In this document: positions 513-15,655 of the stretch, piece by piece
How the letters are laid out: every line of letters starts with the position of its first letter
How positions within the stretch are numbered: the first letter of the stretch is position 1
DNA from: an uncultured archaeon
Lineage (GTDB): Archaea; Iainarchaeota; Iainarchaeia; Iainarchaeales; 1-14-0-10-31-34
Assembly (NCBI GenBank): GCA_964608675.1
Contig: CAZSOZ010000002.1
Span: 203,013-267,012 of the forward strand
Direction: 5' to 3'
Length of the DNA: 64,000 nt
Program-made: the position numbers and the translations under genes
The notes under the pieces: model-generated
The model's input: the letters and a program-made list of their open reading frames with translations, nothing else
Databases searched by the model: none
Told to the model about the DNA's origin: nothing

Positions 513-1605
513 TTTTTATCTCCTTAAAACAGTCAAAGATTTTTTTTGATGCAGTTCCATTTCCAAAAGGGTTTTCAGCTGAAGCCATTTTATTGTAAAG
601 TTCTTTGTTTTCAAAAAGTTTTTTTGTTTCTTTCACTATTTTTTGTGTTTCAACTCCGACAAGTTTTGCTGCTCCTGTAATAACTGCTTCAGACCTTTCA
701 GTTTTTTTCCTTAAAACCAGAACCGGCTTATTTAAGAAAGGAGCTTCTTCTTGTAAGCCTCCTGAATCAGTCAACAAAATAAAAGATTTTTTCATTAAAT
801 GAACAAAAGTTTTGTAATCCAATGGTTTTGTTAGCAAAACATTTTTTTTGTTTGACAAAATTGAATTTACTTTTTTTCTTACATTTGGATTTAAGTGAAC
901 AGGAAAAACAATAAATGAATTCTCAAACTCAGAGATTTCTTTTATTGCATTGAAAATTTTTTCTAATGGTTTTCCAAAGCTTTCTCTTCTATGGCAGGTA
1001 ACCAAAACAATTCTTTTATTTTTTGGGAGTTCATCAAAAAAAGTTTTTTTTAAAAAAGGTTGTTCAATTATCCAGAGAAGAGCATCAATTATCGTGTTTC
1101 CGGTTACAATGATTTTTTCTTTTTTAATTCCTTCATTTAATAGGTTTTGCTTTGATTCTTTTGTTGGAGCAAAAAATAAATCTGAAACAACATCAATTAT
1201 TCTTCTATTAATTTCTTCTGGAAAAGGCTGAAGCTTATTATAAGTTCTTAATCCTGCTTCAATATGAGCTATTTTAATTTTTTTGTAGTACGCTGCTAAA
1301 CTTGAAGCCATTGCAGTTGTAGTGTCTCCCTGCACTATTAAATAATCAGGTTTTTCTTTTTCTAAAATTTCTGAAAGCTGAATTAAAACTGTTTTAGTTA
1401 TATGTTCTAAAGACTGGTTTTCTTTCATTAAATTTAAATTGTAGTCAGGTTTGATTTGAAAAAGTTCAAGGAAAGGTTCAGCCATTTCTTTATGCTGGCC
1501 TGTTAAACAAATTTTTATTTCAAAATCTGAATTCTTAAATTCTTTGATTACTGGAAAAAGTTTTATTAACTCTGGGCGAGTTCCAAAAACAAAAAATAAT
1601 TTCAT
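505..1605 (-). CDS. wecB: UDP-N-acetylglucosamine 2-epimerase (non-hydrolysing)
   Basis: GTRPELIK, TGQH, VQGDTTT, HIEAGLR, PEEINR, TDSGGLQEEAP motifs. Confidence 0.95.
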   Translation of the reverse strand: MKLFFVFGTRPELIKLFPVIKEFKNSDFEIKICLTGQHKEMAEPFLELFQIKPDYNLNLMKENQSLEHITKTVLIQLSEILEKEKPDYLIVQGDTTTAMASSLAAYYKKIKIAHIEAGLRTYNKLQPFPEEINRRIIDVVSDLFFAPTKESKQNLLNEGIKKEKIIVTGNTIIDALLWIIEQPFLKKTFFDELPKNKRIVLVTCHRRESFGKPLEKIFNAIKEISEFENSFIVFPVHLNPNVRKKVNSILSNKKNVLLTKPLDYKTFVHLMKKSFILLTDSGGLQEEAPFLNKPVLVLRKKTERSEAVITGAAKLVGVETQKIVKETKKLFENKELYNKMASAENPFGNGTASKKIFDCFKEIKNE

Positions 1606-1825
1606 AATTAATTTATATTAAAATAGTTTTTTATAGTTTTTATCTTAAAGCAAGCAAAAAAAAAGCAAACTAATTTATTTTTTGGAGTGATAATTTTTTT
1701 GATGAAAATCAAAAAAAAATTTGGAGAACCCTGAATTGCGTTTAGCCAAAAAAAATAGGCGTGTGCCCAAAAAAAAATTTTTTTCCTTCAAAAAAAGTAA
1801 TTTTGTCTTTCAGGCACTTGAATTT

Positions 1826-3454
1826 TTATTCACTGTATTTTTCTTTTATTTCCTTTATTTTTTTGTCCTGCATTTTTTCTGCTTCAAGTCTTTCTAATTT
1901 GTATTCCTTAAAGTCAACAAACTTTAATTGTTCAGTTAAAAGAGGATGCACTCTTTTTATTTCAGAAGCAATTTTTTGTGCGATTCTCCTGTAATCTGGA
2001 TGGCCGTGCATTGTACTTCTTAATTCAGTTAAATGAAATGCTTCCCTTAAATTTAATTTCATGTACCATCTGATTTTGTATCCAAAAGGAACACAGTATT
2101 GAGCGCTCCAAGAATTTTTTGCTTCAATTCTTTCAAACAATTCTTTTGCGTTCTTCATCAAAGAAGTGAAGTCTTCTGTTAAAGCAATTGAATCAAATTC
2201 AATTGGAGTAATAAAACCATGATGAGTTGACAATAACTGTCTTTCTTGTGTAAGAATTCTGTGCCTGTGCAAATCTCTGAAAATTCCAAAGTTGCCAAGC
2301 AAATCAAAAGTATAAAAAACGTTTTCAAAGGCTCTTCCAGGTTTATGCCTTCTGTTTGTCCTTAACTTTGAATAAGAATTAATTAATTCTTTTTTTTGTT
2401 CTTCACTTAAATTTTTTATTTTTTCTTTTATTTGAGTTAAAGAAAGATGTGAATTAGAATAAAGAACTGCAGAAAGCACTTTGTTTTCTGCATCAGAATC
2501 AAAATCAACTAAAACAACTTCTTGTAAATCAACAGGTTTTTCTTTTTCCAGGATTTCTTTTGTTAAATTATTGGTTTTTTTTCTTGTCCTGCTTAAAAAT
2601 TCGGTTTGCTGTACTCCATATTCAGAGAAAGCTCTTTTAACAAAAGAAGGAATATAAAAAGTTAATTCTGAATGCAATTTTTGTGCAATACTCTGTGTTT
2701 CCTGCAGAGAATAACTGTTTAGTTTTTGAATTAAGTATTCAAATGCACGTCCGTTTCCATACAAGCCGGTGTTAGTTAAAGTTGAAGCAGGCAGAAACAC
2801 TCTTAAAACATCACAAGCTTTTGCTTTAACTGTTGAATTGTATGCACGGTCAGAAACTCCTTCTTCCTGAGGATTTTGTTCTTCAATAAATTTTTTCATT
2901 TCAGGAATTTTTTTAGAATAAACAGAAAACAATTCATCACACAATTCAACGTAAGAATCAGCAAACTCTGATTCCATTAATTCTTTTGGACGAAAATAAA
3001 AATAGTTTCCGTTTTCGTTTTTTTCATCAAAATAAATGTATCTAGTTGATTTTTCTAAAGGAGAAATTCCTAAACGGGAATCCTGAATTAATTTAACTGC
3101 AATATTACTTACTTGTTCTGCTGCAACATGAGCTCCACCTAATTCTGCTACACTGTCATCTCCATAACCCAACAAAATTCTGTCATAAAATTCTTCTGCT
3201 TTTTTTATGGCTACTGCCTGTTCAATTCCTTTTCCTGTCTGATACCCAACAATTTCCTTAAAGCCGGTTTTTTCGTTTTCAATGAATTCATCTAAAAGAA
3301 GCTGTCTTAAAGGTTTAGGCGAACGTGAATAACGGGAAAATAATGCTCCCATTACTACTTCCGGAAGATTTTTTAATACAAAAATATTGTTTTTTGTACT
3401 GGAAACAAAAGCAGACAAAATTTTTTTTTGTTCTTCAGAAAAATTTTCTTGCAT
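1826..3454 (-). CDS. thyX: FAD-dependent thymidylate synthase, long tandem-domain form
   Basis: GALFSRYSRS, GYGDDSVAELG, EKSTRY, RDLHRHRILTQ, ELRS..GHPDYR; 542 aa, about two ThyX domains. Confidence 0.88.
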   Translation of the reverse strand: MQENFSEEQKKILSAFVSSTKNNIFVLKNLPEVVMGALFSRYSRSPKPLRQLLLDEFIENEKTGFKEIVGYQTGKGIEQAVAIKKAEEFYDRILLGYGDDSVAELGGAHVAAEQVSNIAVKLIQDSRLGISPLEKSTRYIYFDEKNENGNYFYFRPKELMESEFADSYVELCDELFSVYSKKIPEMKKFIEEQNPQEEGVSDRAYNSTVKAKACDVLRVFLPASTLTNTGLYGNGRAFEYLIQKLNSYSLQETQSIAQKLHSELTFYIPSFVKRAFSEYGVQQTEFLSRTRKKTNNLTKEILEKEKPVDLQEVVLVDFDSDAENKVLSAVLYSNSHLSLTQIKEKIKNLSEEQKKELINSYSKLRTNRRHKPGRAFENVFYTFDLLGNFGIFRDLHRHRILTQERQLLSTHHGFITPIEFDSIALTEDFTSLMKNAKELFERIEAKNSWSAQYCVPFGYKIRWYMKLNLREAFHLTELRSTMHGHPDYRRIAQKIASEIKRVHPLLTEQLKFVDFKEYKLERLEAEKMQDKKIKEIKEKYSE

Positions 3455-9486: not shown

Positions 9487-9887
9487 TTTTTTACCTTCTT
9501 TTTGCTGCATTCAGAACATAAACCATAAAAAATTACGTTAACTGAATCAGGCTTGAATTCTCTTGACTTGAATTTGTCAAGCAGGTCTTTTGGAAAATTT
9601 TTGTCAGTGTATTCAATTATTTTTCCGCAGTTCCTGCATACACAGTGTTCATGAAGATTACAGTCAGCATCAAATCTGAATTCCCCGTTAATTTCAAGCC
9701 TGCAGATTTTACCTAGTTCAGCCAGCTTGCTTAAATTCCTGTAAACCGTTGCACGGGTAATTGACGGAACCTCTTCTTTTACTGCATTATAAATTGTTTC
9801 TGCATTAGGATGGGATTTAACTTTTTTCAGGTAATCAAGAATTTTATGCATTTGAACTGTGTTTCTTATTTCTAAAGACATAAACAA
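9483..9887 (-). CDS. Fur-family regulator, PerR-like
   Basis: SHPNAETIY, ATVYRNL, HEHCVCRNCG, C-terminal CSEC; heads the ahpC-sod-ftn unit. Confidence 0.88.
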   Translation of the reverse strand: MFMSLEIRNTVQMHKILDYLKKVKSHPNAETIYNAVKEEVPSITRATVYRNLSKLAELGKICRLEINGEFRFDADCNLHEHCVCRNCGKIIEYTDKNFPKDLLDKFKSREFKPDSVNVIFYGLCSECSKKKVKK

Positions 9888-9979
9888 ACCTTATTTATAA
9901 TAAATATTAATTAGTAGCAATTATTATTTAAAGCTTTTGGTTGGTTTTTTGGTTTAAAAGAAATTTTTTTCATAAATAT

Positions 9980-11038
9980 TTATCTATTTAAATATGCTTC
10001 AAACAAGATGTCTGAACCTGATTTGCAGAAAACCGGATTTTTTAATTGAATTGATTTGCTTATTTTTTTTGTTTCAAGCTGACCAAAAACAGGAACTGCA
10101 TCATTTCCAAAAATTTTTGGAGAAATAAAAAACATTAATTTGTCTGCAAGTTTTTCCTTCAAAAAAGAAGTAAAAATTTGAGAGCCTCCCTCAACTAAAA
10201 CAGAAGAAATATTTCTTTTTCCGAGTTCAATTAAAAGTTTTTTTAAGTCAACTGAATTGTTTTTTCCTTTAATTTCTATTACTTTTTCTTTGAATTTTTT
10301 TTCTGGAAAAAGTTTTTTGTCTGTTCCTGCAATCAAAAAGTTTTTATCAGAAAAAACATTTAAGCTGGAAGAAATTTTTTTGGAGCAAACAATTATTCTT
10401 AAAGGGTTTCTGCTTTTTGGAATCCTTGAAGTAAGTTTTGGATTGTCTTTTTTTGCAGTATTTTCTCCGATTAAAACTGCATCAATTTTTGAACGAAGAG
10501 CATGCACTAGTTTTCTTGATTCAAGGGAAGAAATCCATTTTGAATCAAAGTTTTTTAATGCTATTTTTCCATCCAAAGAAACTGCTGCTTTAAGGACTAC
10601 AAAAGGCTTTCTTGTTTTTTGAAATTTAATGTATGCTTCATTTATTTTTTTTGCTTTTTTTTCAAGCAGGCCTGTTTCAACTTTTATTCCTGCTTTTTTT
10701 AATTCGTTTATTCCTTTTCCATTAACTAAAGGATTCGGGTCCTTTAAAGCAACTGCAACTTTTTTTATGCCTGACTGAATTATTGCTTTTGTGCAGGGAG
10801 GAGTTCTTCCGTAATGAGAGCAGGGTTCAAGAGAAACAAACATTTCAGCATTAACTGCTTTTTTTCCTGCTTTATTTAAAGCATTAATTTCTGCGTGCTT
10901 TCCTGCGTTTTTTTCATAAAATCCTTCGCCAATAATTTTTTTGTTTTTAACTATTATACAGCCTACGAAAGGATTTGGAGAAACATTTGCTTTAAGGGAA
11001 ATTTCCAAGGCTCTTTCCATGAATTTTTTTTTGTTCAT
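9980..11038 (-). CDS. ribD: Bifunctional pyrimidine deaminase/reductase
   Basis: PNPFVGC, HAE, LEPCSHYGRTPPC, AVSLDGKIA, VLVEGG. Confidence 0.95.
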   Translation of the reverse strand: MNKKKFMERALEISLKANVSPNPFVGCIIVKNKKIIGEGFYEKNAGKHAEINALNKAGKKAVNAEMFVSLEPCSHYGRTPPCTKAIIQSGIKKVAVALKDPNPLVNGKGINELKKAGIKVETGLLEKKAKKINEAYIKFQKTRKPFVVLKAAVSLDGKIALKNFDSKWISSLESRKLVHALRSKIDAVLIGENTAKKDNPKLTSRIPKSRNPLRIIVCSKKISSSLNVFSDKNFLIAGTDKKLFPEKKFKEKVIEIKGKNNSVDLKKLLIELGKRNISSVLVEGGSQIFTSFLKEKLADKLMFFISPKIFGNDAVPVFGQLETKKISKSIQLKNPVFCKSGSDILFEAYLNR

Positions 11039-12222
11039 AACAAATGGCCTAATTTTTCTTTTTTTGTCTGAAAATAATTTTTTGAAAAATTTGTTGGAGA
11101 AATCTTTAAGGGAATTCTTTTGCTTACAGTTATTCCGTTTTCTTTCAACTGCTTAATTTTTTCAGGGTTGTTGGTCATTAACTTAATTTTTTTTGCTCCA
11201 AGTTTTTTGAGGATTTCAGCTGCAACAGCAAAACTTCTTTCATCAGGTTTATGGCCTAAAGCAGTGTTTGCCTGAACTGTATCAAAACCCTGTTCCTGCA
11301 AATGATAAGCCTTAATTTTTTCAATTATTCCTATTCCCCTTCCCTCCTGAAACAAATAAACCAGAATTCCTGCGCTTTCCTCATTTATTTTTTGAAGAGA
11401 AGATTCAAGCTGGCTTCCGCAATCGCATTTAAGAGAATGAAAAATTTCTCCAGTAATGCACTGAGAATGAAGCCTTACCAAAACTTCCTTGTTTTTTATT
11501 TCTCCTTTAACTAATGCAAGATGAACAGAATTATCAGAAGAAAAACTGAAAGCCATTAATTTCATTAAACCAAATTTGGTTGGAAGAACAGCAGAAGACT
11601 CAATTTTAACTAATTCATCAAATTCTTTTCTGAATTCAATTAAATCATCAATTGAAACCATTTTAATTTTGTGTTCATCAGAAAACTCCTTTAATTCATT
11701 CAAGTTTTTAACTGAACCATTTTTATTTACAAGCTCTCCTATGACTCCTGCAGGATAATGCTCAGAAAGCCTTGCTAAATCAACTGCAGCTTCTGTGTGG
11801 CCTTCTCTTCCAAGAACTCCTAAAGGATGAGCAAACAAAGGAAAAACGTGGCCAGGGAAACCAAAATCCTTTTTTTCTGCAGAAAAAGAAATTAATGTCT
11901 TAATTGTTTGATTTCTGTCTTTAGCTGAAATCCCTGAACCTACTTTATTGACGGCATCAACAGAAACAGAAAAACTTGTATTAAAATTATCTGAACTTTT
12001 TTTAACCATTCTTGGAATACCCAATTCATTAAGCCTTTTTTCCTGCATTGGAACACAAATTATTCCAGAAGTATGGTTGACCATGAAAGCCATTTTTTGT
12101 TCAGTTAATTTTTCTGCAGGAACAAACAAGTCTCCTTCGCTTTCCCTGTCTTTATGATCCACTACAATCAAAAAATTTCCTTTCTTTAATTCATTCAAAG
12201 CTTCAGAAACAGACGAAAACAT
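11035..12222 (-). CDS. ribBA: DHBP synthase / GTP cyclohydrolase II
   Basis: DRESEGD, PGHVFPL, REGHTEA; RLHSQCITG..SLKCDCG, QEGRGIG, TNNP. Confidence 0.95.
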   Translation of the reverse strand: MFSSVSEALNELKKGNFLIVVDHKDRESEGDLFVPAEKLTEQKMAFMVNHTSGIICVPMQEKRLNELGIPRMVKKSSDNFNTSFSVSVDAVNKVGSGISAKDRNQTIKTLISFSAEKKDFGFPGHVFPLFAHPLGVLGREGHTEAAVDLARLSEHYPAGVIGELVNKNGSVKNLNELKEFSDEHKIKMVSIDDLIEFRKEFDELVKIESSAVLPTKFGLMKLMAFSFSSDNSVHLALVKGEIKNKEVLVRLHSQCITGEIFHSLKCDCGSQLESSLQKINEESAGILVYLFQEGRGIGIIEKIKAYHLQEQGFDTVQANTALGHKPDERSFAVAAEILKKLGAKKIKLMTNNPEKIKQLKENGITVSKRIPLKISPTNFSKNYFQTKKEKLGHLL

Positions 12223-13104
12223 TTATTTCACCTTTAATGATTTAAAAACTGATTCAACTGAATGCCTTGCATAAGATTCAATTCTTTTAACTGCCTGTTC
12301 CTTTGAAATCCCTGGACCAGAAACTCCAAAAGCAACAGGTTTATTGAATTCAAGACTTAAAGAAAAAACTTTGTCAGCACAAGTAAAAGCAACAACTTCG
12401 TCATGAAAAGTTTCTCCTTTAATTACTGCCCCCAAAACAATCACTGCATTAATATCCTTCTCCTTTAAAAGAAATTTGACTGCCAGAGGAGCATCCAAAA
12501 CGCCTGAAACATGAATTGATTCTTTTACCAGCATTCCAAGTCTTTCTGCATGAATTAAAGCAGTTGACTTCATTTTATGAGTGATATCTGAATTATAATC
12601 CGAAACAACCAAACCAAGTTTTATTGTTTTACTGAAAGGAGGCTTAATTTGCCCTTCATCAGAAAAACCCTGGCGTCTTCCTTTTCCAGCAAATTCAGAA
12701 AGAACAGTTTTGCTTTCAAGTAAAGCCAAAGCATTCAAAACATGCTTTTTTGTTCTTTGTTCAGCTATACTGTAAAGTTGTTCTTCAGTTTTTGCTTCAT
12801 CCATATGAACAAAAACTTCAAGAATAAACTTGTTTTCCGACAACTGCACGCGCTGAATAGAAAGAGAAGCTTCATGAGAACAAGTTTTATCAATTTTTTC
12901 AGGACCGGGCATCCCCAAAGCAATAACCAAATCACAATTGTGTTGCTGGAAAAGTTTTTGACAGGCAACAGGAAGGTCTTTAATGCCTGGAACCGTAAAT
13001 CTTTCAATGTCTCCCTGAAAACCTGATTCAGTTAATTGCTGTTCAACAAAATCAAACATGTTTACTCTGGAAAAAGTTGTGTCAGCAATACCAATTTTAA
13101 CCAT
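12223..13104 (-). CDS. Fusion of archaeal-type riboflavin synthase (RibC) and 6,7-dimethyl-8-ribityllumazine synthase (RibH)
   Basis: N-half IGIADTTFSRVNM, TVPGIKDLPVAC, GMPG..IDK.CSHEAS, EVFVHMDE, GKGRRQG; C-half LGLVVSDYN, GAVIKGETFHDEVV, KPVAFGVSGPG; single open frame. Confidence 0.88.
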   Translation of the reverse strand: MVKIGIADTTFSRVNMFDFVEQQLTESGFQGDIERFTVPGIKDLPVACQKLFQQHNCDLVIALGMPGPEKIDKTCSHEASLSIQRVQLSENKFILEVFVHMDEAKTEEQLYSIAEQRTKKHVLNALALLESKTVLSEFAGKGRRQGFSDEGQIKPPFSKTIKLGLVVSDYNSDITHKMKSTALIHAERLGMLVKESIHVSGVLDAPLAVKFLLKEKDINAVIVLGAVIKGETFHDEVVAFTCADKVFSLSLEFNKPVAFGVSGPGISKEQAVKRIESYARHSVESVFKSLKVK

Positions 13105-13205
13105 AAAATAAAAAGAAAACAGATTACTTAAAAATGTTTGGCTACTCAAAAAAGAGTAGATGCTTTGGGGAATGCATTCTGCTCAAAAACAAAAACTTTT
13201 TTTTG

Positions 13206-14411
13206 TTATTCTTTGTCACGCAGTGCTTCAACAGGATCCATTAAAGAAGCTCTTCTGGAAGGAATAAAACCTGAAATCACTCCAACAAAAAAAGCAAAAC
13301 CAAGAGAACCTAAAAAAAGAAATAAATTAAATTCAATAAACAAATCAACTCCTGATGAGCTTGCAATGATTCCTCCAATTAAAGCCAAAGCAAAACCAAT
13401 TAAATAGCCGATAAATCCTCCAATTAAACCAATGATTCCTGATTCAGTCAAAAAAAGCGAAAGAACAATAGTGTTTGTTGCGCCCACTGCTTTCATTACT
13501 CCTATTTCTTTTGTGCGCTCAACAACAGACATAAGCATTGTATTCATTATTCCAATGCCTCCTACAACCAAAGAAATTGCAGCAATAAAAACCAAAACAA
13601 TCTGAATTAAACCTAAAACACTTAAAGCAGTTTCCTGTATTTGGGATGCAGTTAAAATCTGAAAATCTTCTTGTCCGTGAGCTCTCTCTAATTCTCTTTT
13701 AATTCTTTCTTTTACTTCAGAAACATCTTCTTTATTTACTGCTTTAGCAAAAATTCTATAAGGAGTTAATTCTTTTCCTGTTATTTCCTCTAAAGTTTCA
13801 TAATTCATTACAACCGCATTATCAAACATTGAACCAAAAGACTGACCTGTTGCCTTAGTGATTCCAACAACTTTTAATGAACCTCCTTCAAGAACAAGAT
13901 TCTGCTTTAAATTTATTTTATTTTCAAACTTGTCTTCAGCAAAAGTTTCTCCAATTAAAACAGAATAGTTATCTGAAGAAGCCAAATGCCTTCCTTTATT
14001 TACAGTTAAAACACCCAAATCTTCAAGCAAAGACTGTTTTTTTACGTCAATTCCCAAAATCAAAGCAATTTTTTTTTCGTCTTTGAATTCAATGTTTTCA
14101 GTTGACAAATACAAAGGAGTAGCTGATTCAACTCCTTTGACTGCTTCAACTCTGTCCGCATCTTTTTCATCAAGTTTAGCAAAAGCAGAACTCACAAAAC
14201 TGGAGCCAGGCAAAACAATCAAAGTGTTTGAACCAAGTTTTTCAAATTCTTTTTCAACTGATTTATTAAATCCTTCTCCTATTGAAATTAATGCAACAAC
14301 AGAACCAATTCCAATAATTATTCCAAGCAAAGTCAAAAAACTTCTGAGTTTCTGCTTTTTAAGGTTTTCAAATGCATTAAAAAATAATTCTCTGAAATCC
14401 ATTTTTTTCAC
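13206..14411 (-). CDS. MacB/FtsX-family ABC transporter permease
   Basis: RSFLTLLGIIIGI, GGIGIMNTMLMSVVERTKEIG, DPVEALR. Confidence 0.92.
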   Translation of the reverse strand: MKKMDFRELFFNAFENLKKQKLRSFLTLLGIIIGIGSVVALISIGEGFNKSVEKEFEKLGSNTLIVLPGSSFVSSAFAKLDEKDADRVEAVKGVESATPLYLSTENIEFKDEKKIALILGIDVKKQSLLEDLGVLTVNKGRHLASSDNYSVLIGETFAEDKFENKINLKQNLVLEGGSLKVVGITKATGQSFGSMFDNAVVMNYETLEEITGKELTPYRIFAKAVNKEDVSEVKERIKRELERAHGQEDFQILTASQIQETALSVLGLIQIVLVFIAAISLVVGGIGIMNTMLMSVVERTKEIGVMKAVGATNTIVLSLFLTESGIIGLIGGFIGYLIGFALALIGGIIASSSGVDLFIEFNLFLFLGSLGFAFFVGVISGFIPSRRASLMDPVEALRDKE

Positions 14412-14437
14412 TTAACCAATTTTCTTTTTTTAATTTT

Positions 14438-15655
14438 TTATTCAAATCTTAATGCCTCAACTGGATCCATTTCTGCTGCTCTTTTTGCAGGAATCCATCC
14501 AGAAACCATGCCAACAACCAAAGAAAAAATTAATGCACCTGCAATTAATTCAATTGAAGGAAAAGCATTAAATGCAAAACCTGCATAAGAAGCAGTAAAA
14601 GACGCAAACAAAGCAATCAAAGAACCCAAAACTGCTCCTACAATTCCTCCAATTAAACCAATTAAAGCTGATTCAAACAAAAAAATCCCAAGAACTGTAG
14701 TGCTTGTAGCACCAATAGCTTTCATTATGCCGATTTCTCTTGTTCTTTCCATTACAGCCATTAACATTGTATTCATTATGCCTATTCCTCCTACTACAAG
14801 AGAAATTCCTGCAATCACAAAAACAATTAATCCTACCAAACCAAGTATTGCGTCTGCTCCCTGAAGCAGATTCTCTGAAGTCATTGTATAAAAGTCTTTT
14901 GCCCCGTGCTTTTTTTCTAATTCGTCTTCAATTTCTTCCTGTATTTCATTAATTCTTTCAGTGTCTTCAACTGTAACCAGCAATTCAACAGGATTTTTTT
15001 CATTAAAATAGTCTTCAACCACTCTTTTGTTTACTAACACCATATTAGAAACGCCAAAAGAAGAAGCAAAAGCATTAGGTTTGCTTATTGCAATAACACG
15101 AAATTTTTTTCCGTTTATTTCAATGTTTTCTCTTACCTGAATTTCTTCATCAAAAGTTTCAGAAGCAAAATCAGAATACAAGCCAACAGAAAAATTGTCT
15201 GTTGAAGTAAATTCTCTTCCTTCAATTATTTGCACGTAACCCATTTGTTCAAGCAAATACATTTTGTCTGCTTCCATTCCAACTAAAATCACTTCCACTT
15301 CCTGTCCTTTGTATTCAAGTATTGCAGAAGTTTCCCAAAAACCAGTAGCATCTTCAACTCCTCTAACTCGCTTAATTACATCCAAATCATCTTCTTTTAA
15401 AGTACGGGCAATAGCAGTAGTGATTCCTGCTTCAGAACCAGGTTCAACAAAAATAGTGTTCATTCCAAGAGACTGAAGTTCTCCAGTAATGAATCCCTGC
15501 AGACCCTGAACAATAGCAATCAAAGAAACAATTGCAGCAATGCCAATAATTATTCCAAGCAAAGTCAAATAACTTCTAAGCTTCTGGTTTCTGATGTTTG
15601 TAAAAGCAACAGAAAAGGTTTCAAAATCAATCATTTGCACCTTTCCTTTTTTCAT
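14438..15655 (-). CDS. MacB/FtsX-family ABC transporter permease (paralog; start may be 15634)
   Basis: RSYLTLLGIIIGI, GGIGIMNTMLMAVMERTREIG, DPVEALR. Confidence 0.92.
   Translation of the reverse strand: MKKGKVQMIDFETFSVAFTNIRNQKLRSYLTLLGIIIGIAAIVSLIAIVQGLQGFITGELQSLGMNTIFVEPGSEAGITTAIARTLKEDDLDVIKRVRGVEDATGFWETSAILEYKGQEVEVILVGMEADKMYLLEQMGYVQIIEGREFTSTDNFSVGLYSDFASETFDEEIQVRENIEINGKKFRVIAISKPNAFASSFGVSNMVLVNKRVVEDYFNEKNPVELLVTVEDTERINEIQEEIEDELEKKHGAKDFYTMTSENLLQGADAILGLVGLIVFVIAGISLVVGGIGIMNTMLMAVMERTREIGIMKAIGATSTTVLGIFLFESALIGLIGGIVGAVLGSLIALFASFTASYAGFAFNAFPSIELIAGALIFSLVVGMVSGWIPAKRAAEMDPVEALRFE

Follow-up and report, generated by a model that had tools for sequence, protein, structure and literature searches.

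The window analysed here, a 64,000-nucleotide stretch of an archaeal contig, carries on its minus strand at 12223..13104 a single stop-free frame of 293 aa, seen both in the list of open reading frames and in the translation, in which an archaeal riboflavin synthase (RibC) is joined to a lumazine synthase (RibH). An earlier sequence-only reading of this DNA had likewise described one 293-aa frame; the frame is open without an internal stop, and only the strand was missing from the description. The list of open reading frames also contains an alternative TTG-started frame of 308 aa for this gene; since homologues begin at an ATG (M-x-K-I-G-I), position 13104 was taken as the start. The fusion gene is the first in a packed operon, followed by ribBA and ribD; the ATG of ribBA stands directly after the TAA of the fusion gene, and ribBA shares its last 4 nt with ribD. 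The features of the locus are as follows:

12223..13104, minus strand: ribC-ribH fusion gene (protein P0001), ATG at 13104, TAA at 12223-12225, 293 aa
12646..13104, minus strand: RibC half, aa 1-153, archaeal pentameric riboflavin synthase domain (TIGR01506 and 2b98 matches)
12625..12645, minus strand: linker, aa 154-160, KPPFSKT (translation and model pLDDT)
12226..12624, minus strand: RibH half, aa 161-293, 6,7-dimethyl-8-ribityllumazine synthase domain (TIGR00114, alignment with 4v7g)
11035..12222, minus strand: ribBA, DHBP synthase and GTP cyclohydrolase II, 395 aa (PF00926, E-value 7.6e-72; PF00925, E-value 2.6e-63)
9980..11038, minus strand: ribD, deaminase and reductase, 352 aa (PF00383, E-value 3.2e-20; PF01872, E-value 2.7e-42)

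Screening of the region 9800-13500 for an FMN riboswitch and for further RNA families gave nothing at the family threshold, and nothing convincing as a regulator site was found upstream of the fusion gene, where short A/T-rich inverted repeats alone were seen. The association with other riboflavin genes extends beyond this genome, with ribA and/or ribB adjoining 16 of the 17 fused loci examined.

Both halves of the protein could be assigned to their families with the use of equivalog models. Residues 3-153 match the archaeal riboflavin synthase model TIGR01506 (ribC_arch) over its entire length (model positions 1-151 of 151), with an E-value of 4e-51 and a score of 172.8 bits against a cut-off of 100.55, and residues 161-291 match the NCBIfam lumazine synthase model TIGR00114 (E-value 5e-39, 133.5 bits against a cut-off of 84.6). 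The Pfam family DMRL_synthase (PF00885) was detected in two stretches of the fusion, with 156 bits against a cut-off of 26.7. Assignment of the RibH half to the decameric type-II lumazine synthases was considered and rejected, the score for the RibH2 model NF009084 being 33.7 bits, far below its cut-off of 160. The motifs quoted in the sequence-only reading are all present in the translation, namely ADTTF (7-11), SHEAS (76-80) and LEVFVH (95-100) in the RibC half, KPPFSK (154-159) in the linker, and GETFHD (230-235) and AVKRI (271-275) in the RibH half. With both equivalog models above their cut-offs and both halves retaining their family signatures, the proposed single chain of RibC, linker and RibH was upheld.

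The same reading had called for a check that no stop lies in the linker. Logan contigs of two samples, which are low-depth contigs and not raw reads, showed no differences from the window there: a contig of the possible source sample spans the whole stretch with 0 differences, and in a second sample of the same study the linker codons (12625-12645) lie inside a contig that covers 12513-12695, again with 0 differences. Stop-free fusions were also found in four further genomes of the same genus, one of them ending at a contig end. The junction is thus no peculiarity of a single sample's assembly, and the fused gene is confirmed as real and conserved.

Among solved structures, the RibC half has its best match in the pentameric riboflavin synthase of Methanocaldococcus (2b98; E-value 1e-42, aa 3-152), while a sequence search of the PDB with the whole protein related the RibH half to many solved lumazine synthases with E-values of 1e-8 to 1e-11. 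An AlphaFold2 monomer model of the fusion, built on an alignment of 120 fused homologues (alignment A1), has a mean pLDDT of 95.1 and a pTM of 0.74; the model of P0030, a fusion from an independent Micrarchaeota clade, has a pLDDT of 95.8 and a pTM of 0.83. In the linker region, pLDDT falls to 73-76 over residues 141-160 in the fusion and to 81-82 in P0030. The modelled RibC half superimposes on 2b98_C with a TM-score (normalised by the target) of 0.95, an rmsd of 1.2 and 51% identity over the aligned structure, and the RibH half gives target TM-scores of 0.77 against 1hqk and 0.82 against 1w19. A structure search of the PDB returned no chain spanning both halves, the best TM-score by query length being 0.50. 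In the ESM Atlas, a 72-member archaeal cluster of similar length was observed.

Conservation was scored across the same 120 fused sequences. Altogether, 30 columns are invariant, 20 in the RibC half and 10 in the RibH half. The former comprise F11, T37, G40, K42, D43, G64, G67, D72, C75, H77, E78, E103, R117 and H121, as well as the segment A139-G140-x-G142-x-R144-Q145-G146, which closes the RibC half, and the latter are M178, G201, P206, G230, T232, H234, D235, P256, G260 and R274. In the alignment with the Bacillus anthracis lumazine synthase 4v7g, Y170, H234 and R274 pair with Phe, His and Arg, which we take to be Phe22, His88 and Arg127 in Bacillus subtilis numbering. The characteristic histidine H234 and arginine R274 of lumazine synthase are kept in all 120 fusions, and position 170 is aromatic in 118 of them (F in 111 and Y in 7). 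G146 and the aromatic residue at position 170 are spaced by 23 residues in this protein; among the 120 fusions the spacing varies between 19 and 33, and 87 of them fall at 21-23.

Lumazine synthase condenses 5-amino-6-ribitylaminouracil with 3,4-dihydroxy-2-butanone 4-phosphate to form 6,7-dimethyl-8-ribityllumazine, and archaeal RibC makes riboflavin by the dismutation of two lumazine molecules, releasing the pyrimidine that lumazine synthase uses as its substrate. The genome, which has a size of 1.2 Mb in 53 contigs and is 94% complete, was searched with profiles for further genes of these functions. No DMRL-fold domains besides the two in the fusion were found in this 94%-complete assembly, and the bacterial-type RibE (Lum_binding, PF00677) gave 0 matches in it, whereas 11 of 14 control genomes were matched. 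An archaeal CTP-dependent riboflavin kinase is present, and the bacterial flavokinase was not found in the genome. Since the two halves of the fusion are the only DMRL domains, RibE is missing, ribBA and ribD belong to the same operon and the kinase is present, the pathway would depend on activity in each half; provided that riboflavin is made by the organism, both must work. The fusion is therefore very probably, as judged from the gene content of the genome and the conserved residues, a bifunctional enzyme that catalyses the two final steps of the riboflavin pathway.

To determine how widespread the fusion is, 5.8 billion proteins were screened with a word-indexed search restricted to lengths of 161-513 aa; it returned 491 matches, clustered at 90% identity. 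Among the 120 matches listed of these 491, RibC followed by RibH in one chain was found in 119, including the query. In an exhaustive library clustered at 50% identity, seven representatives (P0121-P0126 and P0128) match at least 280 residues of the query. The sequence-only reading had implied that the fusion is rare, an impression that does not survive these 119 of 120 listed matches, the frequency in Micrarchaeota-labelled genomes (61 of 131, see below) and its several origins on the trees.

In the phylum of the source organism, 57 of 215 genomes carry ribC and ribH, at 58 loci, and ribC lies directly upstream of ribH at all 58. Six of these loci are fused, five of them in the genus of the source organism and one in another family; among the unfused ones, 16 have the two genes in the same frame with at least one stop between them and 36 in different frames. 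A second, larger phylum, labelled Micrarchaeota and reached via Candidatus Bilamarchaeum dharawalense, was sampled by drawing 401 genomes evenly. The genes were found in 131 of these, and the fusion, by hand count, in 61 of the 131, comprising 59 that are stop-free across both halves and 2 partial stop-free matches over the junction; the rest are 21 genomes with in-frame stops and 49 with separate matches or one half only. When this scoring was calibrated in the phylum of the source organism, absence of a stop indicated fusion at 6 of 6 loci and presence of a stop indicated separate genes at 13 of 13.

In species-representative genomes, the adjacent ribC-ribH pair occurs far beyond the small archaea, under labels that include Methanosarcina, Methanoregula, Thermoplasmata and Promethearchaeota, among others. 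Of the best 80 loci in these genomes, 11 are fused, 59 have a stop between genes that share a frame, 9 have the genes in different frames and 1 is incomplete; the ranking favours long continuous matches, and these proportions therefore say nothing about frequency. By label, the 11 fused loci are nine of Micrarchaeota, Micrarchaeia or LFW-283_2, one of 'ainarchaeum' and one of Thermoplasmata, the last with a longer linker. The fused lineages seen are all small-genome archaea, apart from the one locus labelled Thermoplasmata.

The comparison of these loci shows that the fusion derives from the widespread archaeal pair ribC-ribH by loss of the ribC stop codon and the spacer. Stop-codon read-through in relatives with an in-frame ribC-stop-ribH arrangement was considered and rejected: in the unbiased set from the phylum of the source organism, the 16 in-frame loci among 52 unfused ones amount to about a third, the share that chance alone would give; the stop codons are of all three kinds, and a separate start codon for each ribH follows a few codons later. 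The 59 in-frame loci among the 80 from species representatives are explained by the ranking.

The evolution of the fused and split states was followed on trees of the concatenated RibC and RibH halves (quick search, LG+G4); since they are quick-search trees rooted at the midpoint, they indicate changes between the two states and not the direction of these changes. A tree of 175 rows, from which the partial rows L007 and L021 were left out, requires 6 fused/split changes, at least three of which are forced by branches with an SH-aLRT of at least 95, and none of 500 label shuffles gave as few as 6 changes. With the addition of 78 of 80 further loci (L130, without RibH, and L133, with truncated RibH, were left out), a tree of 253 rows requires 10 changes. 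One clade of 106 tips, with a support of 92 and including Micrarchaeota-labelled records, is wholly fused. The clade containing the fusion of the window consists of 13 tips, 12 of them fused, with a support of 99, and lies beside split loci labelled Woesearchaeota, although the joining branches are weak. Its position apart from the clade of 106 tips indicates that the fusion in this genus is independent of that in the large clade, and on these trees the fusion has arisen several times.

Compared with genome G011, the single split member of the genus (genome G014) is missing 14 nt of the linker; the deletion runs ribC into a TAA, and the ATG of ribH overlaps that stop. This looks like a tidy re-splitting of a fused gene, with an assembly error as another possible reading. 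The re-splitting, together with the mostly separate genes in relatives, implies that the covalent linkage is dispensable and that the geometry of the two halves may not be fixed. The variation of the linker spacing (19-33 residues across the 120 fusions) likewise argues against a fixed geometry.

In both the RibC and RibH families, the active sites lie between neighbouring subunits of a pentamer. Since both parent enzymes thus need pentamer interfaces for catalysis, we infer that five fused chains would form both rings, stacked coaxially and each with five members; the RibC ring would rest on the outer, N-terminal face of the RibH ring, fastened to it by a linker of about 8 residues. According to the available part of a published account, lumazine synthase has both its N- and C-termini on the outside of the pentamer, and its assembly usually survives terminal fusions (PMC7369331); with termini pointing outward, RibC would sit on the outer face. 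In such an assembly, the RibH half would make lumazine, and the RibC half would dismutate it and hand the pyrimidine back to RibH. The two activities would be held at a fixed 1:1 ratio with short diffusion paths, lumazine moving one way and pyrimidine the other, so that the coupling would be one of proximity, with no sealed tunnel. The pTM values of 0.74 and 0.83 hint at a compact, defined packing of the two domains in the models, since they exceed the roughly 0.5-0.6 that we estimate for freely hinged domains. We give the coaxial double ring about an even chance of being the basic unit of the fused chain; taken as a whole, a bifunctional fused enzyme, with RibC and RibH rings that may be stacked, is the best explanation of the data and probably the right one.

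Several other explanations have to be weighed against it. That a stop or frameshift missed in the assembly joined two separate genes would fit a metagenome-type assembly in 53 contigs and the existence of a split version within the same genus, but it is contradicted by the contig of the second sample, which crosses the linker with 0 differences, by four other separately assembled genomes of the genus that are also fused, and by the occurrence of the fusion in 118 other protein clusters from many sources (among the 120 matches listed of 491), which makes such an artefact extremely improbable. It is also very unlikely, though slightly less so, that one half is catalytically dead and serves as a scaffold or regulator, the missing activity being supplied from elsewhere or by a host. 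No result obtained here favours this, and its appeal lies in the dependence of many small archaea on partner cells, described in the available part of PMC8561730; against it, both halves exceed their equivalog cut-offs, the His, Arg and aromatic residue of RibH and 20 positions of RibC are invariant or nearly so in 120 fusions, and the genome contains no other DMRL-fold gene and no Lum_binding gene that could stand in.

The two remaining alternatives accept both activities and concern the assembly. One could hypothesise that the fusion is a neutral tether, a by-product of stop loss during genome compaction, with the rings on flexible linkers and neither contact between them nor kinetic benefit. 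The frequent exchange of fused and split states (6-10 changes on the trees), the re-splitting of G014 inside a fused genus, and the 16 of 52 unfused loci of the phylum that are in frame with a stop or two between the genes, where one mutation would produce a fusion, all agree with this, as do the variable spacing of 19-33 residues between G146 and the aromatic residue and the near-restriction of fused lineages to small-genome archaea, with one Thermoplasmata-labelled locus as an exception. However, the large clade is stable, with 106 of 106 tips fused, and 61 of 131 sampled genomes of that phylum carry the fusion; a spacing of 21-23 residues is kept in 87 of 120 fusions, although relatedness may explain part of this; an independent fusion family of reverse order exists; and the pTM values of 0.74 and 0.83 lie above our estimate for two free domains. 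A tether of this kind is therefore a serious, if rather unlikely, reading. Less probable still is a cage in which the RibH halves form a 60-subunit icosahedral shell with 12 RibC pentamers outside on the five-fold axes. Some archaeal lumazine synthases form T=1 capsids with outward N- and C-termini, and terminal fusions rarely stop 60-mer formation, as stated in the available text of PMC7369331, and the RibH half belongs to the ordinary TIGR00114 family rather than to the decameric type II (NF009084, 33.7 against 160 bits). On the other hand, PMC13376624, in its accessible part, places archaeal lumazine synthases among pentamers or dimers of pentamers, the RibH half begins at its first strand, right behind the short linker, and, given the geometry of the capsid, the active sites of lumazine synthase would point away from external RibC rings. 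The accessible parts of PMC7369331 and PMC13376624 disagree on the assembly of archaeal lumazine synthases. If it did exist, such a cage would amount to the bacterial heavy riboflavin synthase turned 'inside-out', and to a naturally occurring enzyme cage of matched symmetries.

The fusion was also compared with characterised systems. Free lumazine synthases occur as pentamers, decamers or 60-mer capsids; the C-terminal half of the fusion shares the fold, family and aromatic, His and Arg positions of the enzymes from Aquifex (1hqk) and Bacillus anthracis (4v7g), but its N-terminus is tied to RibC. The N-terminal half belongs to the same equivalog family as the RibC of Methanocaldococcus jannaschii (2b98, 2b99), with 51% identity, but the solved enzyme is free-standing, with 156 aa, whereas the C-terminus of RibC in the fusion continues into lumazine synthase. 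Archaeal RibC is described as a paralogue of lumazine synthase in the available part of PMC7369331.

The Bacillus subtilis heavy riboflavin synthase and the cage that Aquifex lumazine synthase forms around riboflavin synthase likewise bring together the same two consecutive activities, with lumazine passed on and the pyrimidine recycled. According to the available text of PMC13376624, the heavy riboflavin synthase consists of an unrelated trimeric RibE trapped non-covalently inside a 60-mer via a C-terminal signal peptide. In that complex, lumazine synthase subunits far outnumber those of riboflavin synthase and RibE lies inside the cage, whereas the fusion joins a pentameric archaeal riboflavin synthase covalently and at a 1:1 ratio to an outward-pointing terminus of lumazine synthase. 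Classification of the fusion as a heavy riboflavin synthase of the bacterial type was rejected, as no RibE-type gene was found in the 94%-complete genome.

Fusions of neighbouring enzymes of the pathway are also represented by RibBA and RibD (PMC13151069, in the part available), both encoded in this operon; unlike these, which join unrelated folds, the RibC-RibH protein joins paralogues of the same fold and ring symmetry. Engineered Methanocaldococcus RibC pentamers, namely the channel fusions 4y7j and 4y7k and the designed cage 5im5, resemble it in having a symmetric partner attached or packed against them, and they show that the RibC pentamer tolerates such a partner, the pentameric-channel structures being fusions. 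In contrast to the natural fusion, all three are man-made, are attached via other surfaces or the N-terminus, and contain no second enzyme.

The sequence-only reading had allowed for the fusion being already described and common. It did prove common, but no description of a RibC-RibH fusion was found in the literature searched, which covered the main text of articles outside subscription journals. The words 'fusion' and 'fused' are absent from the searchable text of a 2026 pathway review (PMC13151069), and Figure 3 of PMC5397151, a source available in part, marks gene fusions in archaeal rib loci. The fusion thus appears to be a new architecture of known enzymes, recurrent, common in one phylum and undescribed in the searchable literature. 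It is a natural covalent 1:1 pairing of the enzymes, both slow, that complete vitamin B2 synthesis, paralogues with equal five-fold symmetry, and, next to the caged enzymes of bacteria, a simple system in which to ask whether proximity helps the riboflavin pathway. Protein design uses lumazine synthase as well as the archaeal RibC pentamer as building blocks, and natural stacking would offer it a ready template; for studies of evolution the family provides a clean case of repeated fusion, with at least one apparent re-splitting, of abutting genes.

In databases, the fused proteins are mostly named 'riboflavin synthase', and one JGI entry gives both activities. Names that state a single activity may therefore lead pathway reconstructions to report a false lumazine synthase gap or an incomplete pathway.

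A small family fused in the reverse order, in which a type-II lumazine synthase precedes an archaeal RibC, was also found, in P0171 and 8 relatives. These make up 9 of 120 listed proteins, all from metagenome contigs, and P0171 scores 215.7 bits with NF009084 and 130.4 bits with TIGR01506. This family resembles the RibC-RibH fusion in carrying the same two activities in one chain and differs from it in the opposite order of the domains and in the lumazine synthase subfamily to which its N-terminal half belongs.

The riboflavin pathway of the genome carrying the window is a mosaic, in which the layouts of two operon genes are of bacterial style, while the synthase and the kinase are of archaeal types. 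The ribC-ribH fusion heads a rib operon with ribBA, which joins RibB and RibA in one chain, and ribD, which joins the deaminase and the reductase. In the fused loci labelled as Micrarchaeota, the fusion is flanked by ribB and ribA as separate genes. The features considered here are as follows (the first two in the window, the third in locus L141, C7 of the same genome):

9980..12222, minus strand: ribBA and ribD, in fused, bacterial-style layouts
13206..15655, minus strand: a pair of paralogous ORFs, each about 400 aa long, directly upstream of the rib operon and on its strand
1210..1857, plus strand: CTP-dependent riboflavin kinase, a 215-aa ORF

At the N-terminus of this ORF, about 90 additional residues precede the kinase domain. 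Such an arrangement appears to correspond to that of RbkR, an archaeal kinase/regulator described in PMC5397151. A binding site was looked for upstream of the rib operon in the window, and none was found. Both of the paralogous ORFs located there are hydrophobic at the N-terminus and carry a second hydrophobic block in the C-terminal part, and on these sequence features they look like membrane permeases.

Within the genus of the window, whose members otherwise carry the fused gene, the only split locus is L022, in genome G014. Relative to genome G011, 14 nt of the linker are missing at its junction, resulting in a stop codon of ribC that is overlapped by the ATG of ribH; this looks like gene fission, unless the assembly is at fault. 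Among the genomes sampled from the second phylum, Micrarchaeota by record titles, in-frame stops between ribC and ribH were found in 21, and the predominance of TGA (15 of the 21, counted by hand) is taken as ordinary stop usage.

The opposite domain order characterises a small family of proteins of 312–326 aa (P0171 and P0276–P0283), which among the matches listed come from metagenome contigs only. In these chains the type-II lumazine synthase (NF009084, 215.7 bits) comes first and archaeal RibC (TIGR01506, 130.4 bits) second. Since the nearest relatives of the lumazine synthase half are bacterial proteins, this fusion may belong to a bacterium that makes use of a riboflavin synthase of archaeal type.

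Other architectures were also detected among the homologous proteins. In P0235 (327 aa), a bacterial-type lumazine synthase is present twice, and the copies are letter-for-letter identical; the duplication has the look of a repeat introduced by the assembly, not of a genuine tandem. In P0133, P0137, P0181, and P0189, the archaeal RibC or RibH domain is preceded by 140–350 residues of proline/alanine-rich low-complexity sequence.
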